A stretch of 17,547 nt of DNA from Clostridia bacterium (GCA_024404275.1 JAKSQG010000021.1:1-17547), one strand, 5' to 3'; shown: positions 1-17,547, numbered from the stretch's first letter. Notes: generated by a model from the sequence alone, not told the origin. Program-made: numbers and translations.

Positions 1-52
1 TGAAGGCGGCCGCACCGTTGGTTCCGGCGCTGTGACCAAGATCGTCGAATAA
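1..52 (+). CDS. tuf: elongation factor Tu, C-terminal end (5' part lies outside the window)
   Basis: The frame starting at nt 2 reads EGGRTVGSGAVTKIVE followed by TAA (50-52), the conserved EF-Tu C-terminus. It sits directly upstream of rpmG-secE-nusG, a common bacterial arrangement. Confidence 0.8.
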   Translation, partial: EGGRTVGSGAVTKIVE

Positions 53-65
53 TCATCGAATTTGA

Positions 66-95
66 CCGCTGCGGCAGGGTGACCTGCCGCGGCGG
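66..95 (+). other. GC-rich stem-loop between tuf and rpmG (possible attenuator or processing structure; not a tRNA)
   Basis: ccgctgcggcagg (66-78) pairs with cctgccgcggcgg (83-95), a 13-bp stem with one T-G wobble and loop gtga. No T-tract follows, so it is not a canonical intrinsic terminator. Confidence 0.4.
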
Positions 96-121
96 AACCT
101 GACCGAAAGAGGTGTTCCAAA

Positions 122-286
122 ATGGCAGCCAAGGAAGCCAGAGCAAACATCGTGCTGGCCTGCACCGAGTGCAAGCAGCGCAATTACAACACCAAGAAGA
201 ACAAGAAGAACACCCCCGACCGTATTGAGCTGAACAAGTATTGCCCCTTCTGCAGGAAGCATACTGCTCATCGCGAAACGAGGTAA
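122..286 (+). CDS. rpmG: 50S ribosomal protein L33 (zinc-ribbon C+ form)
   Basis: Not in the ORF track because it is too short. ATG 122 follows RBS agaggtg. Translation: [54 protein letters not shown], stop TAA 284-286. It has the CxxC...CxxC motif and the typical L33 sequence and position. Confidence 0.9.
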
Positions 287-290
287 TACA

Positions 291-701
291 ATGGCTGACG
301 AGAAAACGACCATCGCCAAAGAGGGCGAAAAGAAGGAAAACAAATTCCTTTCTTTCTTGAAGAACCTTCCGAAGCGCATTGCCACGCCTTTCAAGAACAT
401 GTGGCATGAACTGAAAAAGGTCACTTGGCCTACCAAGAAGGACCTGATTCAGTACACTTGCATCGTTCTGCTGTTCATGGCGTTCATGGGTATCGTGATC
501 GGCCTTCTGGACATGGGCGCTTCCAAGCTCGTCACTGCCGTCAGCTCTGCCAAGGCCCCCGCAGCCACGGAGATTCCCGCCCCTGTTGCGACTGAAGCTC
601 CCGTGGAAGCGACCGAAGGCACTGCGGAAGGAACGGATGGTGTGGAAGCCCCTGCCGACAACGCTGTTGTTGAAAGCACGGAAGCTCCCAGCGCCAATTA
701 A
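291..701 (+). CDS. secE: preprotein translocase subunit SecE with a long low-complexity C-terminal tail
   Basis: 136 aa. It has a basic N-terminus, the conserved KxVxWPxxxE/D-like motif (LKKVTWPTKKDL) and one TM helix (YTCIVLLFMAFMGIVIGLL). It lies between rpmG and nusG, with RBS gaggt upstream. The last ~52 aa form an Ala/Pro/Glu/Thr-rich tail. Confidence 0.85.
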   Translation: MADEKTTIAKEGEKKENKFLSFLKNLPKRIATPFKNMWHELKKVTWPTKKDLIQYTCIVLLFMAFMGIVIGLLDMGASKLVTAVSSAKAPAATEIPAPVATEAPVEATEGTAEGTDGVEAPADNAVVESTEAPSAN

Positions 702-713
702 GGAGATCTGTTT

Positions 714-1262
714 ATGAGCGAGTCCACCGAAAGGACCCCGCTGTGGTATGTAGTCCATACCTATTCGGGTTATGAAAACAAGGTAAAGGATAACCTTGAA
801 AAAACAGTCGAAAACAACGGTATGCAGGATCTGATCTTTGAGATCGTTGTGCCGACCGAAGAGGTTGCCGAAATCCGCAACGGCAAGCGCGTGACCTATC
901 AGCGCAAGACGTTCCCGGGTTATGTCCTTGTCAAAATGATCAACACCAACGAAAGCTGGTATGTGGTGCGCAACACGCGTGGTGTGACGGGCTTTGTGGG
1001 CCCCGACAGCACCAAGCCTACGCCCCTTACCCCCGACGAGGTTGACCGTATGCTGTCCAGCCGCTCTGCAGAGAGCCGCTTCAGCATTGCCGTTGGCGAA
1101 GAAGTCCGTATTCTGTCGGGCCCGCTTGCGAACTTTACCGGCATCGTCGAGGAGATCGATCTGGAGCACGCCAAGATGCGCGTGAAGGTGACCATGTTCC
1201 TCGGCCGCGAAATGTCGGTAGATGTCGAGCTTGACCAGGTGGCCAAGCTGGAGGCGGAATAA
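714..1262 (+). CDS. nusG: transcription termination/antitermination factor NusG
   Basis: 182 aa. N-terminal NGN domain (WYVVHTYSGYENKV), C-terminal KOW motif (GEEVRILSGPLANFTGIVEEID), RBS aaggaga 7 nt upstream, canonical secE-nusG-rplK order. Confidence 0.95.
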   Translation: MSESTERTPLWYVVHTYSGYENKVKDNLEKTVENNGMQDLIFEIVVPTEEVAEIRNGKRVTYQRKTFPGYVLVKMINTNESWYVVRNTRGVTGFVGPDSTKPTPLTPDEVDRMLSSRSAESRFSIAVGEEVRILSGPLANFTGIVEEIDLEHAKMRVKVTMFLGREMSVDVELDQVAKLEAE

Positions 1263-1296
1263 TCCGCCGATCTCAACCCTTTTGTTTGTCCCCTTA

Positions 1297-1332
1297 GTGG
1301 GAGGCATGACTTGATCATGCCGCCATTACCAC
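1297..1332 (+). promoter_or_regulatory. structured rplK leader; candidate L1-binding autoregulatory mimic
   Basis: Outer stem gtgg (1297-1300)/ccac (1329-1332), asymmetric internal loop (ga / gccatta), inner 7-bp stem ggcatga (1303-1309)/tcatgcc (1315-1321) and a GGGAGG motif. No T-tract follows. It sits just upstream of the rplK RBS (gaggagg, 1339-1345). The helix/asymmetric loop/helix layout resembles known L1 binding sites, but the assignment is from memory. Confidence 0.3.
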
Positions 1333-1356
1333 AATTATGAGGAGGTGCCATTTACA

Positions 1357-1782
1357 ATGGCAAAGAAAGTAACCGCTATCATCAAACTTCAGGTTAACGC
1401 GGGCAAAGCCAATCCCGCTCCGCCTATCGGTCCCGCTCTGGGCCAGCACGGCGTTAACATTCCCGGCTTCTGCAAGGAATTCAACGCCCGCACCGCGAAG
1501 CAGGAAGGCTACATCATTCCTGTCGTTATCACCGTCTATTCTGACCGTTCCTTCACCTTTATCACCAAGACGCCTCCCGTCCCGGTTCTGATCAAAAAGA
1601 CCCTGGGCATCGAGAGCGCTTCTGCCACCCCCAACAAGGTCAAGGTGGCCCAGCTGACCAAGGCTCAGGTTCGTGAGATCGCCGAAAAGAAGATGCCCGA
1701 CCTGAACGCTGCCAGCATTGAAGCCGCCATGAGCATGGTGGCGGGCACTGCCCGTTCCATGGGCGTGACCGTGGAAGAGTAA
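1357..1782 (+). CDS. rplK: 50S ribosomal protein L11
   Basis: The ORF track starts at 1345, but RBS gaggagg (1339-1345) fits ATG 1357 ([35 protein letters not shown]...), the canonical L11 N-terminus. Stop TAA. Confidence 0.95.
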
Positions 1783-1796
1783 GGGAGGAACTGAAC

Positions 1797-2486
1797 ATGA
1801 AGCACGGCAAGAAGTATGTAGACAGCATGAAGCTGATCGATTCCTCCAAGCTCTATGAAGCCGTGGAAGGCCTGGAGCTTGTCAAGCAGACCGGTAAGGC
1901 CAAGTTTGACGAGACCGTTGAGCTTTCCATCCGTCTGGGCGTTGACCCCCGCCACGCTGACCAGCAGGTCCGCGGCGCCGTGGTTCTGCCCAACGGCACC
2001 GGCAAGAAGGTGCGCGTTCTGGTCTTCGCCAAGGGCCCCAAGGCTGATGAAGCCAAGGCCGCCGGCGCTGACTATGTTGGCGATATGGACCTGGTGCAGA
2101 AGATCCAGCAGGAGAACTGGTTCGACTTCGATGTTTGCGTGGCTACCCCTGATATGATGGGCGTGGTCGGCCGCATCGGTCGTGTCCTGGGCCCCAAGGG
2201 TCTGATGCCCAACCCCAAGTCCGGCACTGTGACGATGGACCTGACCAAGGCCATTGCCGAGATCAAAGCCGGTAAGGTGGAGTACCGTGTGGACAAGACC
2301 GCTATCTGCCATTGCCCCATCGGTAAGGTCTCCTTCACCACCGAGCAGCTGCGTGAAAACCTGGCTGCCCTGATGGAAGCCATCAACAAGGCGAAGCCTG
2401 CTACTGCGAAGGGTATTTATATCCGTTCTCTGTATGTCAGCAGCACGATGGGTCCCTCCATCCGCCTGAACACGCTGAAGTTCTGA
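1797..2486 (+). CDS. rplA: 50S ribosomal protein L1
   Basis: 229 aa. Typical L1 sequence ([24 protein letters not shown]...VATPDMM...[11 protein letters not shown]), RBS gggagg, directly after rplK. Stop TGA. Confidence 0.95.
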
Positions 2487-2508
2487 TCAGCAAAAGCTTA
2501 ACAGCTTG

Positions 2509-2535
2509 CGCGGCCCGATTTCGGGCCGCGTTTTT
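2509..2535 (+). terminator. intrinsic terminator closing the rplK-rplA operon
   Basis: 8-bp GC stem cgcggccc/gggccgcg with loop gatttc, followed by TTTTT (2531-2535), 23 nt after the rplA stop. Confidence 0.8.
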
Positions 2536-2637
2536 GCGTGCGTAAAATGGGACGGGGAGAAGTTGTTCCATTCGAAAGCGTTCGAAAAACAACAGGCATG
2601 TTTCGGACGCCGGAAAGCGGTATTCGGGCAGAAGCGT

Positions 2638-2666
2638 TTGACCCCGCATACAAAGGATGCTATAAT
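2638..2666 (+). promoter_or_regulatory. sigma-70/SigA-type promoter for the flotillin gene
   Basis: TTGACC (2638-2643), 17-nt spacer, TATAAT (2661-2666), with an extended -10 TG (aTGcTATAAT). RBS aggaggggg follows before ATG 2711. Confidence 0.6.
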
Positions 2667-2710
2667 GTCGCCATAAAGAATTTCCAATATCTCACAGGAG
2701 GGGGAAGTGT

Positions 2711-4132
2711 ATGACGACAACTGACATCCTTCGCATTCTGAGCGGCAACTGGTACTGGATCGTGGCCGGCATTGCGGTGCTGATCATTCTGATCAAGTTT
2801 CTGCCGCGTTACAAGATCGCGCCGCCCGATACGGCGCTGATCATCTCCGGTATTGTGCGGCACCGCTACAAGGTGCGCAACCCCGATGGCACTACCTCTA
2901 CGAAAAAGTTTGGCTATCGCATCATCCGCGGCGGCGCGACTTTCTACATCCCCGCAATCGAAAAGATCGATAATCTGGACATGTGCCTGATGCAGGTGGA
3001 CATCAAAACCAGCCAGCCCGTGCCCACCAAGGAGTATATCTCTGTGCTGGTGGATGCCGTGGCGAACATCAAGATCGGTTCGGATGACCTGTCCATTGCT
3101 ACGGCGGCTGAACAGCTGCTGCACTATGATGCCAATCAGATCCGTGCTTTGGCCAAAGATGTTCTGGAAGGCAACATGCGTGAGATCATCGGTCAGATGA
3201 CCATTTCCGAGCTGATCCAGAATCGCGACAAGTGTGCGCAGGAATCCATCAAGGCCGCCATGCAGGACATGGGGAACATGGGTCTTGAGATCATCAACCT
3301 GACGATCCAGAACTTCTCCGATGAAAACGGCGCCGTCATCAACACGATGGCGGTACAGAATATCGTTTCCAAGGAACGCGATGCCGAGATCGCCCGTGCC
3401 AATGCCGCCCAGGAAGGCAACAAAGCGCGTATGGAATCCGAGGCAGCCATTGCTGAACAGCAGAAGGATCTGGAGCTGCGCCGTGCTGCTTACAAGATTG
3501 AGCAGGATCAGAAAAAGGCGCAGGCCGATCTGGCGTATGATATCGAAAAGGAACGTATTCGTAAGGATCTGGAGACCGAGCATGCCGCGGCTGAACTGAC
3601 CAAGCTGCAGAAGCAGACAGAGCTTCAGCGTCAGCAGGTTGAGATCGAGCGTGAACGGCTGAGCGTGGAGATCCGCGAAAAAGCGGCGGCTGAAAAGGAT
3701 GCCCGCATTGCCGAGGCAGAGGCGGAAAAGTTTGCCCGTCAGGCTAAGGCGGATGCCGACCTGTATGAAGCCGCCAAGCAGGCGGAGGCGATCCGTCAGA
3801 AGGGCGAAGCCGAAGCCGAAGCCATCCGCATGAAGGCGGAGGCGATGAAGCTGTACGGACAGGCGGCCATGCTGGAGATGGTGATCGATAAGCTGCCCGA
3901 CATTGCCCGTTCTGTGAGCGAGCCGCTGAGCAAGACCGAAAAGATCATCCTGTTCGGTGAGGGCGGCGCAACATCGATGGTGAAGGATACGGCCGGCACC
4001 ATGCTGCAGACCTTTGAAGCCGTAAAGGAAGCGGTCGGTCTGGACATTCCGCAGATGATGAAGGATGTCAGCAAGGGCGGTCTGGTGGGCAAAGCCCCCG
4101 GAAAGGATGAAGCTTCCGGCCTGACGGAATAA
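2711..4132 (+). CDS. flotillin-family (SPFH/band 7) membrane scaffold protein, FloT-like
   Basis: 473 aa. N-terminal hydrophobic hairpin (WYWIVAGIAVLIILI), then an SPFH domain, then a long Glu/Ala-rich coiled coil (AEAEAEKFARQAKADADLYEAAKQAEAIRQKGEAEAEAIRMKAEAMKLY) typical of bacterial flotillins. Confidence 0.9.
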   Translation: MTTTDILRILSGNWYWIVAGIAVLIILIKFLPRYKIAPPDTALIISGIVRHRYKVRNPDGTTSTKKFGYRIIRGGATFYIPAIEKIDNLDMCLMQVDIKTSQPVPTKEYISVLVDAVANIKIGSDDLSIATAAEQLLHYDANQIRALAKDVLEGNMREIIGQMTISELIQNRDKCAQESIKAAMQDMGNMGLEIINLTIQNFSDENGAVINTMAVQNIVSKERDAEIARANAAQEGNKARMESEAAIAEQQKDLELRRAAYKIEQDQKKAQADLAYDIEKERIRKDLETEHAAAELTKLQKQTELQRQQVEIERERLSVEIREKAAAEKDARIAEAEAEKFARQAKADADLYEAAKQAEAIRQKGEAEAEAIRMKAEAMKLYGQAAMLEMVIDKLPDIARSVSEPLSKTEKIILFGEGGATSMVKDTAGTMLQTFEAVKEAVGLDIPQMMKDVSKGGLVGKAPGKDEASGLTE

Positions 4133-4154
4133 CACAATAAAGAATCATTACATG

Positions 4155-4192
4155 AGCGGGTATGCTACCGAAAGGGGAGCATACCCGCTTTT
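4155..4192 (+). terminator. intrinsic terminator after the flotillin gene
   Basis: Perfect 12-bp stem agcgggtatgct (4155-4166)/agcatacccgct (4178-4189), followed by TTT. Confidence 0.8.
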
Positions 4193-4329
4193 ATGATGGG
4201 CATGGGGAAAATAACAGAATCATTATGCAGGAAGCAGATGAACAAGGTGCATTATTGCCCTAAAAGTATGAGAGCGGGAGACAGAAACTGCAATTTGTTT
4301 ATATTATTGAACTATTTGTGTCAATATGG

Positions 4330-4358
4330 TTGCTTTTCTTCCACATATCCATTATAAT
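4330..4358 (+). promoter_or_regulatory. candidate promoter for the hydrolase-membrane fusion gene
   Basis: TTGCTT (4330-4335), 17-nt spacer, TATAAT (4353-4358) in an AT-rich spacer. A second TATAAT lies at 4376-4381. RBS aagggagag precedes ATG 4403. Confidence 0.5.
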
Positions 4359-4402
4359 AAACTTATGCAACCCTGCATATAATTGAAAAGGGAGAGAATC
4401 AC

Positions 4403-6409
4403 ATGAAGAAAGGCCTTCGTCTGCTCTGCATCGCGCTGGTGCTGATCCTCGTCGGCAGTATTGCCGCCTCGATCTTCAATACCGGCAACGGTGCGACTAC
4501 CGTTTCCCGCATTTCCTTTGAAGCCGATCACGGCACGCTGAGCGGTCTGCTCTACATGCCCAAGGACGCTTCCGCCACCAATCCCAAGGCGACCATTATC
4601 GTCACCCACGGCTATCTGAATTCTGCTGAAATGCAGGATGCCAATGCCATTGAGCTGTCCCGCCGCGGCTTCGTCGTGCTGGCTCTGGACCAGTATGATC
4701 ATGGTCATTCCGACCTGAACAACGAAGTGTACGGTGGCGACACCTCCTTCTTCGGTGTCTGGCGCCCCTTCTGGAACTACTCCATGTTTGACGCTGTCAA
4801 GTACATGTACAATCAGCCCTACGTCCTGAAGGATGAAAACGGCAATGGTATGATCGGCGTGACCGGTCACTCCATGGGCGGCTTCTCCTCCACCATGGCC
4901 GTGTACATGGACGAGCAGAACTTTGCCACTGCCGGCTATCGTATGATCCATGCCTCCCTGACCGAAGGCTCCGACTTCAGCTACACCGGCATGCTGGGCA
5001 ACACCGCCGCGGTGTTTGATGCCAATGGCGGCGGCCGCTTCAACGGTAAGGTTGCCGCCCATTACGATGAGTTCTTCTTTGCTGCCCCCGGTACCAGCGG
5101 CGTGCGCTATAAGGATTATGTCTCCACTCCCGATGGTATGACCTTCCTGCAGCAGACCGAGCCCGCTACCGCCGGCAAGTGGTATGACACCACCGATGGC
5201 GGCCGCCGCGTCATCTATGAGCCCTCCGAGACCCATCCCTGGAACCACTTCTCCAAGACCACCACTGCCAGCGCTGTTGATTTCTATCTGACAGCCTTTG
5301 AAGGCGCGAAGGGCATCAATGCCGTCGCCGCTGACAATCAGGTCTGGCAGCTGAAAGAAGCCTTTGAGTGTGTGGCTCTGGTTGGCTTCGTGATGCTGCT
5401 CATCGCCGTGGCCTCCCTGCTGATCGAACTGCCCTTCTTCAAGATGGCCAAGAGCGGCAAGCTGCCCGTTCAGGCTTCTCCCAAGGGCGGCATGCTGGCC
5501 ATCACCGTGGTCATCCTGTGCATCGCGATCATCCTGCCCTGCATCGTGTTCCAGCCCCTGATGGATGGCAATGCCACCATTAAGGATATCGTCTTCTATG
5601 CTGCCATCGTGGCTGCTGTGGCCGGTGTTGCCGGCATCGCCCTGAACCTGAAGAACAAGAAGGGCCTCATCGGCGGCTGCCTGAGCATCGTCTCCGGCGC
5701 TCTGCTGGCTCTGGTCGTCAAGACCTCCATGTACGGCGATAACGGCTACTTTACCGCCATCGGCGTCAACTCCATCGCTTACTGGACCATCGGCTGCGCC
5801 CTGATCAGCGCGACCATCCTGAGCACCGTGTACACCTGGATCAAGTCCAAGGACGGTGTGGGTCTGGCTGCCTACGGTATCTCCTTCAAGCCCACTGCCA
5901 TCATCGGCGGTATCTGCACCGGTCTGGTCACCGTGGCCATCAGCTATGCTGTGCTGTTCCTGGTCGACGCCGTGCTGAAGGTGGACTTCCGTATCTGGAC
6001 CTTCGCCTTCAAGACCTTTGACGCCAACCTGGTGCCCGCCATCCTGCACTACCTGCCCACCTTCCTGCTGTTCTACGTGATCAGCACCATCGGTATCACC
6101 ATCAACACCAACACCACCCGCATGAACGGCGCTTGGGGTTATGTGCTGGCGATCCTGCTGAACGCCGGCGGCGGTGTCATCTGGCTGTGCCTGCAGTATG
6201 GCACCCTGTTCAACACCGGTGTTGCCTACTGGCCCGGCTCTGCCCTGTCCGGTATCATGATGTTCGCCATGGTTCCCACTCTGGCCATTGCCGCTATCAT
6301 CAGCCGCAACCTGACCAAGAAGACCGGCAACATCTGGACCGCCGCGGTGCTGAACGCTGTGCTCATGACCATCATGACCATCGCCAACACCATGGTCGTT
6401 TACAAGTAA
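4403..6409 (+). CDS. membrane-anchored alpha/beta-hydrolase fused to a ~10-TM integral membrane domain (function unknown)
   Basis: 668 aa. N-terminal signal anchor (LRLLCIALVLILVGSIAASIF), oxyanion-type HG (VTHGY) and nucleophile elbow GHSMGG (nt 4865-4882). From about nt 5365 there are ~10 predicted hydrophobic helices. Strong RBS. Codon usage resembles the ribosomal genes (CGT/CGC, GGC/GGT, CTG, ATC; almost no CGG/GGG). Confidence 0.85.
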   Translation: MKKGLRLLCIALVLILVGSIAASIFNTGNGATTVSRISFEADHGTLSGLLYMPKDASATNPKATIIVTHGYLNSAEMQDANAIELSRRGFVVLALDQYDHGHSDLNNEVYGGDTSFFGVWRPFWNYSMFDAVKYMYNQPYVLKDENGNGMIGVTGHSMGGFSSTMAVYMDEQNFATAGYRMIHASLTEGSDFSYTGMLGNTAAVFDANGGGRFNGKVAAHYDEFFFAAPGTSGVRYKDYVSTPDGMTFLQQTEPATAGKWYDTTDGGRRVIYEPSETHPWNHFSKTTTASAVDFYLTAFEGAKGINAVAADNQVWQLKEAFECVALVGFVMLLIAVASLLIELPFFKMAKSGKLPVQASPKGGMLAITVVILCIAIILPCIVFQPLMDGNATIKDIVFYAAIVAAVAGVAGIALNLKNKKGLIGGCLSIVSGALLALVVKTSMYGDNGYFTAIGVNSIAYWTIGCALISATILSTVYTWIKSKDGVGLAAYGISFKPTAIIGGICTGLVTVAISYAVLFLVDAVLKVDFRIWTFAFKTFDANLVPAILHYLPTFLLFYVISTIGITINTNTTRMNGAWGYVLAILLNAGGGVIWLCLQYGTLFNTGVAYWPGSALSGIMMFAMVPTLAIAAIISRNLTKKTGNIWTAAVLNAVLMTIMTIANTMVVYK

Positions 6410-6427
6410 TCATTTACGAGAGGCATT

Positions 6428-6467
6428 TGGGAACCACCCTTTTTGAAGCCAAAAAGGGCAGTTCCCA
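6428..6467 (+). other. imperfect hairpin downstream of the hydrolase gene
   Basis: tgggaac-ca-cccttttt / aaaaaggg-ca-gttccca: 7+8 bp with a 2x2 internal mismatch and loop gaagcc. No T-tract follows. Confidence 0.4.
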
Positions 6468-6478
6468 AGCCCTCCGCG

Positions 6479-6556
6479 AAAAAGCAGTTCTGGAATGAGA
6501 GCATTGCACCTTTGCTTTGCCAAAGGGGATGCATCATACCATGGACTGCTTTTTTT
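6479..6556 (+). terminator. long compound hairpin with a T7 tract; likely terminator of the 4403..6409 gene, or an independent structured RNA
   Basis: aaaaagcagt (6479-6488) pairs with actgcttttt (6545-6554). An inner stem (cctttg/caaagg, gcat/atgc) lies inside, and the T-run extends to 6556. Confidence 0.45.
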
Positions 6557-6598
6557 GAACATGGCCTTTCATGGCCCTGTATGACCCATAATAAAATA

Positions 6599-6635
6599 CC
6601 CTTGCCATGATGAGTTTCATTCATCAAGGCAAGGG
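6599..6635 (+). other. hairpin in the convergent intergenic region
   Basis: cccttgccatgatga (6599-6613) pairs with tcatcaaggcaaggg (6621-6635): 15-bp stem with one mismatch and loop gtttcat. The downstream sequence ggttctgttgtctg is U-rich. Confidence 0.4.
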
Positions 6636-6675
6636 GGTTCTGTTGTCTGAAAAGACTGCCCTTTCTCGGAGGGGG

Positions 6676-6722
6676 TAAAAGGGGGAACCATGCTTTCCGG
6701 CTTCGGAAAGCGTGGTTCCCCC
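6676..6722 (-). terminator. intrinsic terminator of the minus-strand metallophosphatase gene
   Basis: 19-bp stem gggggaaccatgctttccg/cggaaagcgtggttccccc (6681-6722) with one wobble and loop gctt. Read on the minus strand it is followed by TTTT (6677-6680). It starts 15 nt beyond the stop at 6737. Confidence 0.75.
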
Positions 6723-6736
6723 TTGTAATCTGTTTG

Positions 6737-7612: not shown

Positions 7613-8545
7613 ATGAAAAGTGTCATGCCGGATTATCTTCCTTCCTTCAAGTGCATCGCGGGGCGCTGCCGTCATACCTGCTGCGCGGGATGGGAGATCG
7701 ACATTGATGAATACTCCCTGGAACGCTGGCGGCAGGTAAAGGGTCCCTTTGGCGAACGCCTGCGGGGCTGCATTGAACAGGACGCCGACAGCGCGCATTT
7801 TTGCCTGCTGCCGGGGGATCGCTGCCCGCTGCTGCGGGCGGACGGCCTGTGCGAGATGATCGTGCAGTTGGGGGAAGACAGCCTGTGTGATATCTGTGCC
7901 GATCATCCCCGCTTCCGCAACTTTTTCAGCGACCGCGAGGAATTGGGGCTTGGGCTTTGCTGTGAGGAAGCCGCGCGGCTGATTCTGACCCGCGAAACAC
8001 CGGTCTGCCTGATGGAAATGGGCGATGAAGCGCTGCGGTATGAAGAAACCGCACTGCTGAGTCTGCGCGCGGAAGCCATCGGGCAGGCACAAGACAGAAC
8101 GCTTTCCATGGAAGAGCGCTTATGCCGCCTGGAGGAGGAAACCGGCGGGGCGGTGTTTGCGACCGGTCCCGAGGCGGCTGCGCTGCTGCGTCCGCTGGAA
8201 CGTCTGGACACGGCGTGGGAGGAGCGGCTGGACTGCCTTGAAAAACAGCCCTCGCTGACCCTTTGCAATCACGCCGATACGCCCCTTGAGCAGCTGTGCG
8301 TGTACTTTTTGTTCCGTCACCTGCCCGGTGCGGCAGAGGATGGCAGGTTCACGGAAAGGCTGCTGATGTGTACCCTGCTCACACGCGTGACGGCGGCGAT
8401 CAGCCGCGGCATGGATGACTTGATCGAAGCTGCCCGGCAGATTTCCGGAGAGATCGAATACTCCGATGAAAACATCGGGCTGATTCTGGACAAGATCAAA
8501 GAAAAAACACAAGATCGATCAGATTTATTCACGATTCTGCCATAA
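7613..8545 (+). CDS. FliB-family (flagellin lysine-N-methylase-like) / YkgJ-like cysteine-cluster protein
   Basis: 310 aa. N-terminal FKCIAGRCRHTCCAGWEIDID (CxxxxCxxxCC-GW-I-ID), then CPLLRADGLCEMI and CDICADHPRF. This matches my recollection of the FliB/UPF0153 Cys-rich signature. The family assignment is from memory and unverified. Confidence 0.6.
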   Translation: MKSVMPDYLPSFKCIAGRCRHTCCAGWEIDIDEYSLERWRQVKGPFGERLRGCIEQDADSAHFCLLPGDRCPLLRADGLCEMIVQLGEDSLCDICADHPRFRNFFSDREELGLGLCCEEAARLILTRETPVCLMEMGDEALRYEETALLSLRAEAIGQAQDRTLSMEERLCRLEEETGGAVFATGPEAAALLRPLERLDTAWEERLDCLEKQPSLTLCNHADTPLEQLCVYFLFRHLPGAAEDGRFTERLLMCTLLTRVTAAISRGMDDLIEAARQISGEIEYSDENIGLILDKIKEKTQDRSDLFTILP

Positions 8546-8661: not shown

Positions 8662-9330
8662 ATGCGACACGAAATCAAAAGCCGGCTCACAGCCGCGTAG
8701 GCTGCAGCGGTGCGGGTGCGCCTTCGGGCCATTACCACACTGGACCCGCATGTGCGGGAAGACGGCACCTATGATATCCACAGCGTGTACATGGATACGC
8801 CCACCGACCGTGCGCTGATGGAAAAACAGGTGGGCATGCCGGTGCGCGACAAATACCGCATCCGCTATTACAATGAGGACAGAGAGCATTTTGTCATTGA
8901 GCGCAAAAGCAAGGTGGGGTCGCTGTGTGACAAGGTGGGCTGCAAGCTGACCCGCAATGAGCTAGACCGTCTGCTGGCGGGAGACATCGACTGGATGCTT
9001 CATGACGACAGGCGCCTGCTCCGGGAGGTATGGCTGCGCATGAAAAATGAATTGCTGGCCCCCCGCATGCAGGTGCATTACACCCGGGAACCCGTCATCT
9101 ACGGTCCCGGCAATGTGCGGGTCACGCTGGACAGCAACATCCGTACGGGTCTGTACAATCCCGATTTTTTGACCGAGGGGCTGGTAAGACCCCGCACGCA
9201 GTCGCCGGATTTTGTGCTGCTGTAGGTCAAGTTTGATGCCTATCTGCCGCAGATCATTGCCGATATTACGCAGTGTAACTGCCGCCCCATGTCTTTTTCC
9301 AAATTTGAAGCCTGCCACAGCTATGATTGA
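8662..9330 (+). CDS. VTC-domain (polyphosphate-polymerase-like, triphosphate-tunnel fold) protein. A single frame is interrupted by in-frame TAG at 8698-8700 and 9223-9225: either a pseudogene or recoded.
   Basis: The standard-code ORF is 8710..9225 (GTG start). The same frame continues upstream to ATG 8662 (MRHEIKSRLTAA, then TAG) and downstream after the second TAG (VKFDAYLPQIIADITQCNCRPMSFSKFEACHSYD, then TGA 9328-9330). That gives 222 codons, the normal family length, and restores the family-typical N-terminal RHEIK strand and C-terminal L-x-VK-[FY]-D...FSK[FY]xAC end. Confidence 0.75.
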
Positions 9331-10079: not shown

Positions 10080-10142
10080 GATATTTTGGACAGATAATGC
10101 AAAAAACGAGGGGAAAATAAGGCATTTATTTGCGGAAAATGC

Positions 10143-10171
10143 TGGAACAGTCTGGCAATTTATTGTATAAT
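10143..10171 (+). promoter_or_regulatory. candidate promoter of the glycosidase/deacetylase operon
   Basis: TGGAAC (10143-10148), 17-nt spacer, TATAAT (10166-10171), with an extended -10 (tTGtTATAAT) in an AT-rich spacer. Confidence 0.45.
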
Positions 10172-10238
10172 TTCAGCAGACTGCTGACCCGAGCAGCGAA
10201 AAAAGGGAATGAATTGTATCCCGAACAAGGAGAAACCA

Positions 10239-11192
10239 ATGAAAAAGAGTTTCCTGCTGGTATTGCTTGTACTGATCGGCTGCATGGCGACGTGCAGCGC
10301 CAGTACGTTGTTTCCTTCCAACGCGCCCTGTGAAAGACCGGAGATCGAAGGTGTCGACGAGGATGGCTATTTGCTGTCGGACGAGGATGAGTTTGTGTAT
10401 GCCGATGCGGAAAACGGCCTGTGGGTGTATGTCAGCAGTGAAATGAGGGTGGAGATCGACCGTTTCAAGGCCAATGACCTGGACCTGGTGTGGCTTTCCG
10501 CCCACATCTGGCAGAAGGAGCCGACCGGCTTTGAAACCTTTTTCAGCAATGAAAAAAAGCCATGGGATGACCATATGAATCAGGAAACGCTGTCCCGACG
10601 CGAGCGGCTGATCTTTTCCTGCAATTCGGACTTTTTCTCTGCCCGACTGGGCGACATACCCGTGGGCATCGTCATCCGTCACGGCAAGGTCATTTCCAAA
10701 AAGACCGCTGCCAGCCGCAGCGGCATTCCCACACTGGACCTGATGGCGTTCTATCCCGATGGCGTGATGAAAACGTACGGTTCGCGTGAATATACGCCGG
10801 ATGCTCTGCTGGAGATGGGCGTGACGGATACCGTCTGTTTCGGACCGATCCTGGTACGCGATGGCGAGCTGAAGCTGGAGTATCTTCAAAATCTGGGGCA
10901 TGCCCGTGAGCCGCGTACGGCGCTTGGCATGATCGAGCCGGGGCATTATGTCTGCATCCTGACCGAGGGCAGAACCAAGGACAGCGAGGGCGTGGAGCTT
11001 TCCTGGCTCGGTCAAATGATGGCAGAGGAAGGCTGTGTGGAGGCGCTCAACCTGGACGGCGGTAAGACCAGTGTGATGTGCTTCATGGGCAACAAGATCA
11101 ACCAAACCGGTCTTCCCGGCAAGGATGAGTATGCCCGCAGAACGACCGATCTGCTGGGCATCGGACATTCCGAAAAGGTGACAAAGCCGTGA
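10239..11192 (+). CDS. phosphodiester glycosidase family (NAGPA/DUF2233-like) lipoprotein, paralogue 1
   Basis: RBS aaggag precedes ATG 10239. Lipoprotein signal MKKSFLLVLLVLIGC (lipobox LIGC). C-terminal motifs GVTDTVCFGPILVRDG, REPRTALG and ALNLDGGKTSVM are characteristic of the family as I recall it. Confidence 0.85.
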   Translation: MKKSFLLVLLVLIGCMATCSASTLFPSNAPCERPEIEGVDEDGYLLSDEDEFVYADAENGLWVYVSSEMRVEIDRFKANDLDLVWLSAHIWQKEPTGFETFFSNEKKPWDDHMNQETLSRRERLIFSCNSDFFSARLGDIPVGIVIRHGKVISKKTAASRSGIPTLDLMAFYPDGVMKTYGSREYTPDALLEMGVTDTVCFGPILVRDGELKLEYLQNLGHAREPRTALGMIEPGHYVCILTEGRTKDSEGVELSWLGQMMAEEGCVEALNLDGGKTSVMCFMGNKINQTGLPGKDEYARRTTDLLGIGHSEKVTKP

Positions 11193-12385
11193 GAAACGTA
11201 AAGAGAAGGTATGGCCTGTATATCGGGGCGATGATGCTGGCGGCGCTTTTCTGCCTGCTGACGGCGGCGGGTAGCGCCCGGGCGGAAGCGGCACGGAACA
11301 TCGTGGATCAATGCCATTTGTACGCCCCGCAGAACACGGAAAAGCTGGGAAACGCCCATGACGGCAACGATTTTACCATGTGGTCGTGCTCCGAGGCGTC
11401 CTATCTGCAGTTTGAGGTGCCCGAGGGGCAGACTGTGCACGGCGTGTACATCAAGTGGGGCATGGATGTGCCCGAATGGCAGATCGTCAAGACGGAAGAC
11501 AGCGCTGAAGTACTGTGCGGCGGCAGCGAGGGTCATGCGCATGAATATAAGACTTGTCTGCTGGAAAGCGGTACCTATCGCTTGAAGTTGACGGCTGCCC
11601 CCGAGGATGGGCGCATGCGTATCCGCGAGATCGCGCTGTATACCGATGGTGAACTGCCGAAGGATGTGCAGGTATGGCAGGTGCCGTCTGACAAGGTGGA
11701 CCTGATGGCCATGCCGGCGCATCCCGATGATGAGCTGCTGTTTTTCGGCGGCACGCTGCCGTATTATGCCGGAGAGCTGAAGAAGGATGTGCTGGTGGTC
11801 TATCCTACGTGCGCGACCTATAACCGCCGTACCGAAATGCTCAATGGCCTGTGGCATTGCGGGGTCAGGCTGTATCCCGTCATCGGACCGTTTGATGATG
11901 AAAAATTCTACACCGCCAATGAGATGTATCGTCATTGGGGCGGCCGGGAAAAGGTGCTGCAGTACTTTACCGAGGTCATCCGCCGTTATCGCCCGGATGT
12001 GATCGTGACCCACGATGTCAACGGTGAGTACGGTCATGGCGGACACATGGCGGTGTGCGCTTCGGTGACCGACGCGGTGACAAGAACGGCGGCGGACGCG
12101 GCGTATGAGACGCAATCGGCACCGTGGCAGGTGAAAAAGCTTTATGTACACCTGTATGAAGAACAGACGCGGGATATGAACTGGGAGATTCCGCTGGAGG
12201 CCTTTGACGGCAAGACGGCCTTTAAGATTGCCGAGGAAGCCTTCCTCTGCCACGAGTCGCAGACGCAGTCGTTCAATATGCATTCGGACGGAAGTTATTC
12301 CTGCCGCCGGTTCGGGCTGGCTTATTCATCGGTCGGCGATGATGTGAACATGGATGACTTTTTTGAAAACATCAACAAGGAGTAA
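11189..12385 (+). CDS. secreted PIG-L/LmbE-family N-acetylglucosaminyl deacetylase with an N-terminal discoidin (F5/8 type C)-like domain
   Basis: The GTG start overlaps the upstream TGA (GTGA), suggesting translational coupling. Signal peptide ends ...AAGSARA-EA. HDGNDFTMW and RIREIALY are discoidin-like. AHPDDE (11717-11734) and GHGGH (HxxH) are PIG-L motifs. The start is uncertain; the alternative is ATG 11231. Confidence 0.8.
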   Translation: MRNVKRRYGLYIGAMMLAALFCLLTAAGSARAEAARNIVDQCHLYAPQNTEKLGNAHDGNDFTMWSCSEASYLQFEVPEGQTVHGVYIKWGMDVPEWQIVKTEDSAEVLCGGSEGHAHEYKTCLLESGTYRLKLTAAPEDGRMRIREIALYTDGELPKDVQVWQVPSDKVDLMAMPAHPDDELLFFGGTLPYYAGELKKDVLVVYPTCATYNRRTEMLNGLWHCGVRLYPVIGPFDDEKFYTANEMYRHWGGREKVLQYFTEVIRRYRPDVIVTHDVNGEYGHGGHMAVCASVTDAVTRTAADAAYETQSAPWQVKKLYVHLYEEQTRDMNWEIPLEAFDGKTAFKIAEEAFLCHESQTQSFNMHSDGSYSCRRFGLAYSSVGDDVNMDDFFENINKE

Positions 12386-12391
12386 ATGCGC

Positions 12392-13342
12392 ATGAAAAAG
12401 CTGGCTGTTTTATTGTTGACGGCGTTGCTGCTGCTTCCGCTCTTTGCCGGGGCAGATGAGATCATTCCCGCAAACGAGAAACATCCGCGCCCCGAAATTG
12501 AAAACGTGGGTGAGGACGGTTATCTTGTGAACGAAGATGATGAGTTTATCTATGAGGATGCCGAGGAAGGTTTGTGGCTGTATGTCAGCAGTGACCTGCG
12601 GGTGGAGATCGATCGCTACACCGCCTCCAACATGCAGCTCATCTGGTATACCGCCCACATCTGGCAAAAGGACGGTGACGGCATGCACACCTTCCTTTCC
12701 AACCCCGCGAAACCTTTTGAAGACCGTATGTGGGTGGAACAGATCGCCCGCAAATATCAGCTGGTGTTTGCCATGAACGGCGACTTCTATGAGGACCGCG
12801 TCGGCAACATGCCCGTTGGCTGCATCATCCGCAACGGCAAGGTCATCAACAGCAAGCCCTCCATCCGCAGTGAGATTCCCACGCTGGACATTCTGGCATT
12901 GTTTTCCGACGGTACCATGCGCTGCTTTGGCGGGCGCAGCAATACGGCGGACGAATATCTGGCGATGGGCGTAACGGATACCATTTGCTTTGGACCCATC
13001 CTCATCCGTGATGGCGCTGTCAATGAAAAACAGCTGGTGGATATGGGCCGAGCGAGAGAGCCGCGTACCGCGCTTGGCATGGTGGAAAAGGGTCATTATG
13101 TGGCAATGCTGGTGGAAGGACGCACGGAAAACAGCATTGGCTCCCGCTACATTGAAACGGCGGAAATGATGGCCAAGGAAGGCTGCGTGGAAGCCCTGAA
13201 TCTGGACGGCGGTCAGACGGCGGTGATGTGTTTTATGGGCACCAAGCTGAACGTGACCGGGCAGTATGGCAAAGGCAGCGAACAGCGCCTGGTGACCGAT
13301 ATTGTCGGCATCGGCCACAGCGTGCAGGTAACGGAAAAATAA
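12392..13342 (+). CDS. phosphodiester glycosidase family (NAGPA/DUF2233-like) secreted protein, paralogue 2
   Basis: RBS aaggag (12377-12382) is 9 nt before ATG 12392; ATG 12386 is the alternative start. Signal peptide MKKLAVLLLTALLLLPLFAGA. Collinear with and by eye roughly half identical to the 10239..11192 product (RPEIENVGEDGYL..., GVTDTICFGPILIRDG, ALNLDGGQTAVM). Confidence 0.85.
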   Translation: MKKLAVLLLTALLLLPLFAGADEIIPANEKHPRPEIENVGEDGYLVNEDDEFIYEDAEEGLWLYVSSDLRVEIDRYTASNMQLIWYTAHIWQKDGDGMHTFLSNPAKPFEDRMWVEQIARKYQLVFAMNGDFYEDRVGNMPVGCIIRNGKVINSKPSIRSEIPTLDILALFSDGTMRCFGGRSNTADEYLAMGVTDTICFGPILIRDGAVNEKQLVDMGRAREPRTALGMVEKGHYVAMLVEGRTENSIGSRYIETAEMMAKEGCVEALNLDGGQTAVMCFMGTKLNVTGQYGKGSEQRLVTDIVGIGHSVQVTEK

Positions 13343-13356
13343 AGAATACCAAAGTG

Positions 13357-13400
13357 GGGGATGCTTTTTCAAAGAGGAAAAGCGTCTCCCCTTTTTCTTT
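13357..13400 (+). terminator. intrinsic terminator of the glycosidase/deacetylase operon
   Basis: Stem gggg-at-gctttt / aaaagc-gtct-cccc (bulged), followed by TTTTTCTTTT. Confidence 0.6.
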
Positions 13401-13553
13401 TGACAATTTTCAGGAAAAGCAGAACGCTTTGAAGGATTTAACGCAAAGAAGGCGAATAATAACCTTATGATGCCATAAACAAGTCGCAATCCATTGAAAA
13501 AGTGTGATTTGTAATTGCGAAAAAAATCCGTTTGCGCAAGGAGGAGTTTGTCA

Positions 13554-15047
13554 ATGAGCAAGCGAAAAATGAATACGGTCGCCATGGCGTCCTGCCTGCT
13601 TTGTGACGATGCGAAGTGTAAGGAAGCCTGTCCGCATTTTGATCCGTCCAAAGCGCTGCGCAGCCTTTGGTTTGACAATGAGGGCGGTGCGCGTGCGGTG
13701 ATTCCCGATACGATGCCCTGCGCTGATTGCAGCGCGCCCTGCGTGGATGCCTGTGTGCAGAGCGGAAAGATCGATATCCGCGGGTTGATGCTTCAGATGG
13801 GAAAGGAGATCCCGGCTTGCAGGGGACTGGACCCGGCGAGGCTGAAGATCGATTTCCTTGGCTTTCCGCTGGAAAATCCGTTTCTGCTTTCCTCTTCTGT
13901 GGTCGGCTCCAATTACGACATGTGCCGCCGTGCCTTCCAAATGGGATGGGCCGGTGTTGCCTACAAGACGATCTGCCTGTTTGACATCCATGAGACCTCG
14001 CCGCGCTATGCCGCGATCAAGGACCCGAGCGGTACGGTCATTGGCTTTAAGAATGTGGAACAGCTGTCCGATCTTCCGCTTGAAGAAAACCTTTTGACTT
14101 TCCGCAGGCTGAAGGCAGAATTTCCGGAAAAATACCTGCTGGTTTCCATCATGGGACGGGATGAAGAGGAATGGGAAACGTTGGCGCGTCTGGCGGAGGA
14201 GAACGGCGCGGACGCCGTTGAGCTGAATTTTTCCTGCCCGAACATGAAGGATGATGGTTTGGGCAGCGATGTCGGTCAGGATAATCTGCTGATCCGGCAG
14301 TTTACGGCGGCGGCGCGGCGGGGCACCAAAAAGCCGATCATTGCAAAGCTGACGCCCAATGTGCAGGAAATGTCTTCCGCCGCGTTGGCGGCAAAGGAGG
14401 GCGGCGCGGACGGACTTGCGGCCATCAACACGCTGAAAAGCTATATTACGCTGGACAGCGAAACATACGCGAAGGACAACGAGCATGCGGCGTACCATAT
14501 GACTGCGATCGGCGGCTATTCCGGTGCCTCCGTGAAGCCGATCGCCTTGCGTTTTATTGCCGAGCTGAAGCAGAACCCCATGCTTTGTGATTTACCGGTT
14601 TCCGGCATGGGCGGCGTGGAGACCTGGCGTGATGCCGCACAGTTTATGATCATGGGCGCTTCCTCTGTGCAGGTGACGACCGCTGTCATGCTGTACGGAT
14701 ATCGGATCATTGAAGATCTGTGCGATGGGCTGCTGCGATTGCTGGACGAGTATAAACTGGAAAATGTGGAGGAACTGGTCGCCATCGGATTGAAAAACGT
14801 CGTGCCGCTGCATGATGTGGAGCGGGACAAGGTGATCTATCCGCGGTTTGACCTTTCCCGCTGTGTGGGCTGCAGACGCTGCCTGCGCTCCTGCATGGAC
14901 GGCGGACATCAGGCTATTTTCTTTGAAAAAGGGCATCCGCGCCTGGACGCCGCGCGCTGCGTCGGCTGCCATCTGTGCGTGATTGTTTGCCCGAAGGAAG
15001 CTGTTTCCTCCTCCGGCATTTCGGTGCCGCGGCATCGGCAGCCCTGA
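13554..15047 (+). CDS. dihydropyrimidine/dihydroorotate dehydrogenase-like flavoprotein (PreA-like) with an extra N-terminal DPD-type Fe-S domain and a C-terminal 2x[4Fe-4S] ferredoxin domain
   Basis: RBS aggagg precedes ATG 13554; the ORF-track TTG 13515 is rejected. N-terminus: CLLCDDAKCKEACP and CADCSAPCVDAC. TIM-barrel core contains ELNFSCPNM...GSDVGQ. C-terminus: CVGCRRCLRSC and CVGCHLCVIVCP. Confidence 0.8.
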   Translation: MSKRKMNTVAMASCLLCDDAKCKEACPHFDPSKALRSLWFDNEGGARAVIPDTMPCADCSAPCVDACVQSGKIDIRGLMLQMGKEIPACRGLDPARLKIDFLGFPLENPFLLSSSVVGSNYDMCRRAFQMGWAGVAYKTICLFDIHETSPRYAAIKDPSGTVIGFKNVEQLSDLPLEENLLTFRRLKAEFPEKYLLVSIMGRDEEEWETLARLAEENGADAVELNFSCPNMKDDGLGSDVGQDNLLIRQFTAAARRGTKKPIIAKLTPNVQEMSSAALAAKEGGADGLAAINTLKSYITLDSETYAKDNEHAAYHMTAIGGYSGASVKPIALRFIAELKQNPMLCDLPVSGMGGVETWRDAAQFMIMGASSVQVTTAVMLYGYRIIEDLCDGLLRLLDEYKLENVEELVAIGLKNVVPLHDVERDKVIYPRFDLSRCVGCRRCLRSCMDGGHQAIFFEKGHPRLDAARCVGCHLCVIVCPKEAVSSSGISVPRHRQP

Positions 15048-15123
15048 CACCGCTGCAAAAAGGAAGCTGTAGCGTGCTGAGCGGGGGCTTCCTTCACGAC
15101 GGAAGAGCAGAGAGCGATAACTG

Positions 15124-15177
15124 AAAACAGACAGCATTCATGCCGTGAGTACGGTACAAATGCTGTCTGTTTTTTTT
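15124..15177. terminator. bidirectional intrinsic terminator between the convergent PreA-like and ATPase genes
   Basis: 15-bp stem aaaacagacagcatt (15124-15138)/aatgctgtctgtttt (15159-15173). The T-run extends to 15177 on the + strand, and the A-run gives U's on the minus strand. Confidence 0.8.
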
Positions 15178-15240
15178 ATATAGGGCCTTTTTGGGATTCT
15201 GGCATGATTGCAAGCGGCCCCCCTTGGGCAGCCTGTGCGA

Positions 15241-17547
15241 TCAATGCGTATTCGCGGAAGTTCTTTTGCGGCGGAACAGCAGCGACGCCGCACCCCATAC
15301 GCCGGTGCCTGCGGCCAGGCACAAAAGTCCATAGCCCCAGGCAGCGCCGGTGAGCATGCCGGTGCTGATCTTGAACAGATTACCCAACACCGCCACAGCG
15401 ATCAGGCTGCCGATGGTCATGAGAGACGCCACCGCGATGCGCAGCTTGCTGACAGGAACACACACGGAGTACAGGGCCAGCAGACCGACACCCAGTGCAC
15501 ACAGCGACGCCAGTACGGAGCACATTTCCGTGGGCAGACCGATCCAATACTCGCCGGCCATGCACAGCAGGGCCGCTACGGCCACAGCGCTGCCGCCCGG
15601 AACAGCCCGGCGCAGCACACGGGCGAGGAAACTGCCCTCAATGCGCTCCTGATTGGGCTCCATGGCCAGGAAGAAGGAAGGAATGCCAAGGGTCAGCGCG
15701 GAGATTAGGGTCAGCTGCACCGGCTGGAAGGGATAAGCCAGGGGCAGCAGCAGCGTCACCAGACTGATGAGGAAGGTCGATAATGTTTTGACCAGAAACA
15801 GCGAAGAAGCGCGGGTGATGTTACCCACCACGCGGCGGCCTTCACTTACCACCTGCGGCAGAAGCGGGAAACCGTCGCCGGGAATCGAGATCTGGGCGGC
15901 GTGACGGGCCGCGTCGGAACCGCCTGCCACAGCAATGGAGCAATCGGCTGCCTTGAGCGCGGGGATGTCGTTTACGCCGTCGCCGGTCATGGCCACGCGC
16001 AGGCCATGGGCTTTCAGGGCTTCCACCAGCAGGCGTTTCTGTTCGGGACTGACGCGGCCGAAAACAGTGGTCTGTTTGCAGCGCTGCTTCAAGGCATCCG
16101 CATCGAGGACAGAGGCATCCACCCATTCACCGTCCAGACCGAGGCGTTTGGCAATGGCGGAAACAGTGCGGGGATCGTCACCGCTGATCAGCTTCAGCTG
16201 TACTCCTTCATGGCGGAAAGCTTCCAGCGTGGCGGCGCAGCCGGGGCGCAGTTCGTCCCGGAGGGCCAGCAGGGCCATGGGGGAGAGCGTACCGCCCTGC
16301 ACCGAGCCGGCGAGGAGCAGCACGCGCAGCCCCTGCGCGGTCAAAGCGTTCTGCTGCTCCTGAAGCGGCGCGGGAAGGTTTTCCATCACAAAGGACGGCG
16401 CGCCCAGTACGATGCGCCGACCGTCCCGCAGGACCACGGCGCTGCATTTCTTTTCGGAGGAGAAGGGCTCGGCGGAGACGATATCCGTGGTATCGGCTGC
16501 CGGGGGACACCAGGCACGCAGCGCATCGAGGGTACCGGTGGCATCATCGAAGGCCGCCAGAAAACGGGAAAGGTCGCTGCGTAGAGAGTCTTCGGAGGTG
16601 TTTACAGGCAATACTGTTTCGACCTCCATACGGCCGGTGGTCAGGGTGCCGGTCTTGTCCAGACACAGAACATCAGCCCGGGCCAGGGTTTCAATGCCGT
16701 ACAGCTCCTGCACCAGCACGTCTTTGCGCCCAAGGCGCACCACGCCGACCATCAACGCAACACTGGTCAGCAGGATCAGACCCTCGGGGATCATGCCCAG
16801 CATGGAAGCGACAGCGGCCGGGACGGCGGCTTTCAGGGCGATGCCGTTGAAAAGGGTCTGCTTCAAAAGAACGAGCAGACCGAGGGGCACCAGGATCATG
16901 CTGACGTAATGCAGCAGCTTGTTCAGATCCTGCATCAGCTGGGATTTGGGGCTGCGGATGGCACGCCCTTCCCGGGTGAGCCCGGCGGCGTAGCTTTCAT
17001 CGCCGACCTTTTCCAGTTCCACAAACAGTGTACCCTCGGTGATGAAGGTGCCGGACAGCGCCCGGTCGCCGGAGGTGCGCAGCATGGGCTCGCTTTCACC
17101 GGTCAGCAGGGATTCATCGATGGCACCGCTGCCCGAGACCACTGTGCCGTCAGCAGGCACCTGATCGCCGCGCCGCAGCACCACAATGTCACCGCGCACC
17201 AGGGCATCGGGGTCGACAGACGTCTCCTCGCCATCCCGCAGCACATGGCATTTGGCACGGTGGAGCAGCTCCAGCCGGGCAATGGTCTTGCGTGCCCGCA
17301 GCTATTGAATGGTGGCAATGAGCGTGTTGGATACAACGACACCCATAAACAACATGTTGCGGTAGCTGCCCACCAGCAGCAGCGCCAGCGCCAGGGCTAC
17401 ATTCAGCGCGTTAAAAAAGGTAAAAAGATTGCCGGCCAGAATCTGCCCGACGGTTTTTCCATGCGTTTGGCTGTGGGCATTGCCCTCGCCCGCGGCAGCC
17501 CGGCGGGCGGCTTCCTCATTGGACAGCCCGCGAAGAGGTTGATTCAT
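15241..17547 (-). CDS. P-type cation-transporting ATPase (HAD-IC, P2-like, PEGL motif). A single frame is interrupted by one in-frame TAG at 17302-17304: either a pseudogene or recoded.
   Basis: The track splits it into 17302..17547 (81 aa) and 15241..17244 (GTG start). These are the same frame; the 19 codons between them (LRARKTIARLELLHRAKCH) are open. Motifs: TGES, PEGL, DKTGTLT, MTGDGVNDIPALKAAD. Total 768 codons. The ATG lies at the window edge (17547), so the start cannot be checked against upstream sequence. Confidence 0.85.

Follow-up and report, generated by a model that had tools for sequence, protein, structure and literature searches.

The window analyzed here, a stretch of 17,547 nucleotides from a Clostridia bacterium (GCA_024404275.1, JAKSQG010000021.1:1-17547), is a bacterial chromosomal segment with a guanine-plus-cytosine content (GC) of 56%. 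It comprises 5,198 codons, and 15 of its 17 genes lie on the plus strand. The species is an uncultured gut member of the Clostridia; exact-protein matches placed the source on a contig of 17,870 nucleotides of the NCBI metagenome-assembled genome (MAG) GCA_024500545.1 (locus tags MJ136_). Two genes of the window are interrupted by in-frame TAG codons. The first one encodes a VTC-domain (polyphosphate polymerase domain) protein (8662-9330, plus strand) and can be read over 222 codons through two TAGs to a TGA stop. TAG 1 is codon 13 of this gene (8698-8700, plus strand), TAG 2 is codon 188 (9223-9225, plus strand) and resides in a strand with the motif LL-E-VK. In the 222-codon reading, residues 2-218 are covered by the Pfam VTC model, both TAGs included, and the homologues of the protein have a length of 222 amino acids (aa). 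NCBI annotates only the 171-codon middle piece of the gene (8710-9225), and no start codon exists downstream of TAG 2. A profile match to Vtc4 covers residues 37-169 only, with neither TAG site inside, and a search of the PDB with the VTC sequence gave no match. The second gene, located on the minus strand (15241-17547), encodes a HAD-IC P-type ATPase and is open over 768 codons except for TAG 3. This TAG is codon 82 (17302-17304, minus strand) and belongs to the IQ-E-LRARK motif behind the second transmembrane segment (TM2). The public annotation splits the gene into proteins of 81 aa and 667 aa; E1-E2_ATPase and Hydrolase domains were detected on protein P0142 and on the gene calls of contig L092.

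An earlier note, made from the sequence of the window, had described the three TAGs at these positions and both genes as otherwise open and family-like on either side of them. The coordinates were confirmed by translation, and the description agrees with the extent of the Pfam match, the length of the VTC homologues and the single TAG within the 768 ATPase codons. When only TAA and TGA were read as stops, no other real gene of the window contained an in-frame TAG, as the note had also stated; additional open frames holding TAGs turned out to be antisense shadows. The density of in-frame TAGs is 3 in 5,198 codons (approximately 1 per 1,700), which corresponds to about 0.85% of the Glu positions. 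None is present in the ribosomal-protein genes or nusG of the window.

To what extent the TAGs recur was analyzed by an unbiased search with the VTC sequence against 5.8 billion proteins. One close match was obtained, P0002, which is the 171-aa piece bounded by both TAGs (98% identity). The remaining VTC matches listed showed at most 75% identity and were mostly full length (222 aa). The 90%-identity cluster of P0002 comprises four TAG-bounded 171-aa sequences, for which NCBI, ENA and Logan together record at least 13 contigs. Both VTC TAGs are kept in L011 (SRR27361835), which matches the window at 96.4% identity over a stretch of 5.6 kb, and all three TAGs are present in L092 (ERZ27247129), with 96.7% identity over 10.3 kb. 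The 81-aa N-terminal piece of the ATPase ending at TAG 3 was detected on seven contigs, and TAG 3 occurs in L092-L097, which stem from six samples. An unbiased search with the ATPase revealed, above 59% identity, the 667-aa post-TAG fragment alone. The TAGs were found in all sampled strains of the species (at least 15 samples, 96-98.5% nucleotide identity), and no TAG-free allele of the VTC or ATPase gene is on record for the species among the matches listed in the unbiased searches. The trait is common to a species-level lineage and is seen in more than one assembly. Moreover, the haplotypes bearing the TAGs differ from one another at synonymous sites close by, so that the TAGs predate the divergence of the strains.

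The residues aligned with the TAGs, which the earlier note had given as Asp/Glu, Glu and Glu, were corroborated by comparison with homologues. Of 115 VTC homologues, 71 have D at the position of codon 13, 38 E, 4 Q, 1 S and 1 A, so that 109 are acidic here, and every close homologue has E. At codon 188, all 115 carry E. At ATPase codon 82, 79 of 80 relatives possess E, encoded by GAG (60) or GAA (19), and one possesses S. Orthologues of a sister lineage, named in the note as a check, were also inspected. The closest sister, L098 (JGI sample 3300020112; 94.6% protein identity for VTC and 94% identity for rplA), has GAA at the position of TAG 1 and GAG at the position of TAG 2. Columns of Gln, Tyr, Lys, Trp, Leu or Ser are not represented among the three sites. 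The window contains 125 CAG and 162 GAG codons. The pattern exceeds chance: if single-base nonsense mutations struck this codon usage at random, three GAG-to-TAG lesions out of three would arise with a probability of 0.0004-0.0015. Under a suppressor inserting Gln, CAG-to-TAG transitions would be the commonest neutral route, yet no site lies in a Gln column. With three sites behind it, Glu is the best-supported meaning of TAG.

Substitution patterns on both sides of the TAGs point to purifying selection. Between the window and L092, the ATPase gene downstream of TAG 3 shows 37 synonymous and 10 non-synonymous differences and no indels, giving a ratio of non-synonymous to synonymous substitution rates (dN/dS) of 0.10. 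For the VTC gene, dN/dS values of 0.06 (versus L092) and 0.04 (versus L011) were determined, and eight intact neighbour genes compared between the window and L092 yielded values of 0.02-0.17. The synonymous rate (dS) within the species is about 0.07-0.13, and neither the VTC nor the ATPase gene contains indels or further stops. Over the whole VTC gene, 97 synonymous and 10 non-synonymous codon differences separate the species from its sister L098. The strongest evidence for selection comes from segments that would be untranslatable if TAG were a stop, namely the 34 VTC codons after TAG 2, which lack a usable start, and the spacer in the ATPase gene. The former revealed 17 synonymous and no non-synonymous differences to the sister, and two and none, respectively, within the species. 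The latter, 19 codons between TAG 3 and the next possible GTG start, contains five synonymous and no non-synonymous differences in L096. Similarly, the 12 VTC codons before TAG 1 differ from the sister at seven synonymous and no non-synonymous positions. Judged by the codon differences, the reading frames have evidently been maintained by selection since the strains diverged.

A recount of the terminators agreed with the earlier note: 11 of the 17 genes of the window end in TAA, 6 in TGA and none in TAG. The note had taken this lack of TAG terminators as support for recoding, though not as decisive by itself. Gene ends were also counted in relatives (L012-L021, L114, L118, L098 and L117). With a codon-usage caller that was trained on the gene calls of the database and reproduces them, not one of 130 genes ends in TAG in eight of the ten nearest species-representative relatives, the other two being L015 (1-2 of 18) and L017 (6 of 22). 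For all loci with a GC of 50-64%, 47 TAG ends in 542 were counted. Database gene calls on four loci of the VTC-defined clade contain 0/22, 0/23, 0/7 and 0/3 TAG ends (0/55). The relatives in which TAG ends are rare have a GC of 52-62% and still use TAA as a frequent terminator, and L017, L025, L058 and L076 of the same data set exhibit a normal use of TAG. Two other estimates were discarded. A value of 13% TAG terminators in relatives, based on the longest open reading frames (ORFs), was inflated by antisense ORFs (2 of 10 had a Pfam match), and a filter based on the GC of third codon positions still led to miscalls, for which reason the codon-usage caller was used instead. Since relatives without recoding have 0/130 and 0/55 TAG ends, the 0/17 of the window is uninformative by itself, and the terminator argument of the note fails because it describes a clade-wide trait. 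The data suggest a clade-wide selection against TAG stops which is older than the sense TAGs. In-frame TAGs were not found in the relatives, the sister L098 included; the candidates proved to be real stops followed by a gene in the same frame, or lay in antisense frames. As regards the composition of the window, the trinucleotide TAG is strongly depleted on the plus strand in all frames (19 observed, 105 expected from dinucleotides), and CTA occurs 75 times on this strand with 108 expected.

It is probable that UAG is functionally translated in these genes, most likely as Glu. UAG would then be non-terminating here, and the full-length VTC protein (222 aa) and P-type ATPase (768 aa) would be made. 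No sequence context shared by the three TAGs, no significant fold downstream of them (z-scores of 0.5, -1.5 and 0.9) and no Rfam element in the window were detected, which favours a context-independent decoding by a tRNA over a site-specific recoding. This tRNA would have the anticodon CUA and carry Glu. In the simplest scenario, it would stem from a duplicated copy of tRNA-Glu(CUC) whose anticodon became CUA through a single substitution at position 36, mirroring the GAG-to-TAG changes in the genes. The lineage may have been pre-adapted to such a step, as TAG terminators are nearly absent in its relatives. Because these relatives almost never end genes in TAG, a suppressor would have been cheap and would have disturbed few genes. 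The sparse sites, none of which is strain-specific or situated in a translation gene, point either to a young reassignment or to a tolerated or incompletely efficient suppressor. That TAG has been reassigned to Glu by codon capture through the CUC-to-CUA change in tRNA-Glu, with RF1 (release factor 1) lost or dispensable and GAG-to-TAG changes starting to spread, is conceivable but rather doubtful. A full reassignment is unproven and can only be put forward tentatively. From the proposal of the earlier note that TAG is a sense codon, the sense decoding and the assignment to Glu are thus the parts best supported, by selection and by the alignment columns, whereas its terminator argument does not hold.

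Several observations weigh against the translation of UAG as Glu. In approximately 20 kb of readable DNA of the species (the window and same-species contigs), no tRNA(CUA) was detected by ARAGORN and Rfam; the sole tRNA in this DNA is tRNA-Arg(CCU), located to the right of the window. Bacterial glutamyl-tRNA synthetase (GluRS) normally reads the anticodon, and an engineered tRNA-Glu(CUA) of Escherichia coli is poorly charged, or mischarged with Gln. The sites number no more than three and are spread over two genes, whose membrane or polyphosphate functions look dispensable. About 2.5 kb of DNA beyond the window holds no further in-frame TAG. Neither a TAG/GAG polymorphism among the strains nor a strain-specific TAG was seen, even though some turnover of sites is predicted at a dS of about 0.1 if TAG were a fully neutral equivalent of a Glu codon. 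Finally, no in-frame TAG was found in the relatives, so the trait would be confined to one species-level lineage.

The same sparseness of sites leaves room for leaky read-through in an RF1-poor cell. In this case, RF1 would be weak, scarce or lost, UAG would be read without a dedicated tRNA by near-cognate tRNA-Gln(CUG), or by Tyr, Lys or Trp tRNAs, and even a low efficiency would supply full-length protein in amounts sufficient for the genes to be retained by selection. A weak RF1 activity would be tolerable in a clade almost without TAG terminators, and the explanation is in line with the small number of TAG sites, none of which is strain-specific or lies in a highly expressed gene, as well as with the lack of a tRNA(CUA) in the approximately 20 kb seen. 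However, near-cognate tRNAs would mostly insert other residues, while all sites are Glu sites, two of them invariant or nearly so. Furthermore, in-frame TAGs were not seen in the relatives, where TAG terminators are just as rare, and the VTC and ATPase genes are selected as strongly as the genes around them. We therefore regard leaky termination as unlikely. The three lesions are, on the other hand, one and the same G-to-T transversion of GAG, as it is generated by oxidative damage or a mutY/mutM defect. They might consequently be nonsense mutations fixed by hitch-hiking after a mutator episode, leaving genes that are dead or split into fragments restarted at GTG. That only two genes are affected, and that the public annotation has separate ORFs of 171, 81 and 667 aa, would fit this scenario. 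It is nevertheless quite improbable in view of dN/dS values of 0.04-0.10 and missing indels at a within-species dS of about 0.07-0.13, of exclusively synonymous change in the 34 VTC codons without a start and in the 19 ATPase codons before the GTG, and of the occurrence of the TAGs on diverged haplotypes, which makes them older than the strain divergence. Besides, one would not expect function from a P-type ATPase deprived of TM1-TM2 or from a VTC tunnel without the strands at its two ends, the first and the last. The alternative that the earlier note had set against recoding was recent nonsense mutation or sequencing artefact. Its first half, fresh pseudogenes, is strongly disfavoured by the selection seen before, between and after the TAGs, the lack of indels and the lack of a TAG-free allele among the matches listed for the species.

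The second half of that alternative, a sequencing or assembly error, might be thought of as G-to-T changes are a known class of oxidative artefacts and the source is a MAG. It is refuted, with a negligible residual probability, by the presence of the same TAGs in many samples of ENA and Logan that were independently sequenced and assembled and whose strains are 1.5-4% diverged. A programmed, site-specific recoding by pyrrolysine or by a PYLIS- or SECIS-like read-through signal also deserves consideration, as UAG is the pyrrolysine codon and pyl genes exist in some Firmicutes. It is very improbable, since the sites are conserved Glu positions, VTC proteins and P-type ATPases are unrelated to methylamine methyltransferases, the TAGs share no context and are not followed by a significant structure, and no Rfam element was found in the window. 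Compared with these explanations, translation of UAG, most likely as Glu, accounts best for the data.

Viral contigs and metagenomes were scanned for the pattern of a Glu-type anticodon arm with the anticodon CUA. No such arm was found in the viral contigs. The metagenomes yielded 15 loci, four of which carry a tRNA(CUA), none of them from this species. In two cases, L105 (3157-3234, minus strand) and L112 (751-825, plus strand), a Glu-like tRNA(CUA) directly follows tRNA-Gln(CUG), scoring 40.8 and 49.7 bits, respectively, on the Rfam tRNA model. Both loci belong to unrelated organisms (GC 49% and 40%), and the three genes of L105 are free of in-frame TAGs. Nevertheless, they demonstrate that Glu-like tRNA(CUA) genes arise in nature. 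In the relative L045 (Ca. Limiplasma; 12383-12531), the corresponding position directly behind tRNA-Gln(CUG) is occupied by tRNA-Glu(CUC). The L112 tRNA has three extra bases between its acceptor and D stems and adjoins a large serine recombinase gene (761-1915, minus strand). Two further loci, L102 (3691-3764) and L108 (779-852), harbor identical tRNA(CUA) genes that are not Glu-like and are embedded in dense, phage- or mobile-element-like arrays together with Lys, Leu, Met, Val, Pro and Ile tRNAs.

According to Shulgina and Eddy, all known code changes in bacteria reassign UGA (PMC8629427), and a 2026 paper (PMC13462651) and a 2026 preprint (10.64898/2026.05.24.727570) list UGA reassignments only for bacteria, next to an archaeal case of UAG read as pyrrolysine. 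A search of the literature revealed no report of a bacterial UAG-to-Glu code, in accordance with the earlier note, which knew of none. With the UGA codes (code 4, Trp; code 25, Gly), the present case shares in-frame stops at conserved positions of intact genes and a codon with which genes of the lineage seldom or never end. The mechanism expected for these codes is a mutated tRNA anticodon, accompanied by loss of the release factor that recognizes the codon (PMC8629427, PMC13462651). By contrast, the codon concerned here is UAG, which is read by RF1 and not, as UGA, by RF2, the genome is neither AT-rich nor visibly reduced (GC 56%), and the recoded sites are far sparser (approximately 1 per 1,700 codons). 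In addition, the tRNA and the loss of a release factor are only proposed here. The codon-amino acid pairing proposed here is the one of the eukaryotic UAG (UAR)-to-Glu codes of peritrich ciliates and Blastocrithidia nonstop (PMC12153298). There as here, the codons GAG and UAG and the anticodons CUC and CUA are one step apart, but eukaryotes differ by eRF1, by other identity rules of GluRS and by the co-reassignment of UAA, whereas TAA is the commonest terminator (11/17) in the window. Gut phages using code 15 read TAG as Gln by means of suppressor tRNAs of their own. They resemble the decoding proposed for our case, in which amber would likewise be a sense codon of a gut genome read by a tRNA(CUA), but differ from it since the window is a chromosomal tuf-rpmG-secE-nusG-rplK-rplA neighbourhood and the aligned residue is Glu, not Gln.

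In some archaea, UAG encodes pyrrolysine genome-wide (cited in the gTranslate preprint 10.64898/2026.05.24.727570). As in these archaea, a sense UAG in our species would not reduce the coding density and would thus be missed by standard gene callers. On the other hand, our organism is a bacterium, its TAGs occupy positions conserved as Glu and there is no link to pyl genes. Classical amber suppressors of laboratory and natural strains, like supE of E. coli, a tRNA-Gln(CUA), compete with RF1 and allow genes with amber codons to function, and a partial suppression of this kind would resemble the present case. Such suppressors are strain-level variants, though, while the in-frame TAGs described here are fixed and under selection across a diverged natural population. 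To our knowledge, there is no natural suppressor that inserts Glu. If the proposed decoding is true, a bacterium would use UAG as a sense codon for an amino acid that is not pyrrolysine, and the meaning UAG = Glu in particular would constitute a new code variant. The host, a Clostridia species of the ruminant or animal gut, would be the first natural bacterium with this meaning if the codon has indeed been reassigned. It would also be a case at an early stage, with few sites, a sister possessing GAA and GAG and a clade nearly devoid of TAG terminators, so that a natural population would allow codon-capture and ambiguous-intermediate models to be tested directly. For genetic-code engineers, a Glu-accepting tRNA(CUA) occurring in nature together with its synthetase would be of interest as well. 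Standard annotation already splits the genes into fragments of 171, 81 and 667 aa, and current code predictors would miss UAG recoding because the coding density is not lowered.

The nearest named relatives of the ATPase are encoded by MAGs of the Christensenellales and of Aristaeellaceae type, mostly from the ruminant gut, with at most 59% identity. A scan with the ATPase of one genome per GTDB species revealed no genome of the same species, the best match having 57% identity. Some sequences considered as further DNA of the species proved to be of other origin. MetQ-like lipoprotein forms of 186 and 145 aa, found with the sister's protein and regarded as candidates for TAG-split genes, are 5'-deleted remnants of a lineage with a GC of 63%. 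In this lineage (L122-L135), the remnants are located between a GFO_IDH_MocA gene and msrA and have been truncated by deletion. L136, examined as a further locus of the species, belongs to a different lineage with a GC of 59%. L114 and L115 carry an intact SpoU methylase gene, of which L116 (773-1506), one assembly of a relative, has two overlapping ORFs of 129 aa each; the split looks like a frameshift or an assembly error.

The left part of the window contains, in this order, the 3' end of tuf, rpmG, secE, nusG, rplK and rplA; rplJ-rplL do not follow rplA in the window (2487-2710). To the right of rplA, genes for a flotillin, an alpha/beta-hydrolase and a metallophosphatase (minus strand) were identified, and the gene at 7613-8545 encodes a Cys-rich protein of 310 aa, which is named flagellin lysine-N-methylase by NCBI and had no Pfam match at E <= 0.001. 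The right part is made up of the VTC-domain gene, a DUF4956 gene, the trio NAGPA/PIG-L/NAGPA, a PreA-like gene belonging to the dihydroorotate-dehydrogenase family with 4Fe-4S domains, and the ATPase gene. The two NAGPA (phosphodiester glycosidase) paralogues, 54% identical to each other, flank the PIG-L deacetylase gene (10209-13342), and at the junction of the first NAGPA gene and the PIG-L gene there is an overlap of 4 nucleotides (11189-11192). Between rplA and the VTC gene, the gene content of the species is wholly different from that of its sister L098 (913-4673). While the flotillin, hydrolase, metallophosphatase and 310-aa protein genes are found here, L098 harbors genes for a C39-like peptidase, a MetQ-like lipoprotein and a 320-aa protein which is 47% identical to the 310-aa protein. 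Past the right end of the window, the gene for tRNA-Arg(CCU) is located 0.56 kb upstream of the ATPase start (L093, 1-2555; L092, 26-102), and in one strain it is followed by HsdM, a type I restriction-modification methylase. The contig L092 ends just past tRNA-Arg(CCU) and the MAG contig stops before reaching it; the positions at which the strain contigs end suggest that a variable island resides at this tRNA gene.

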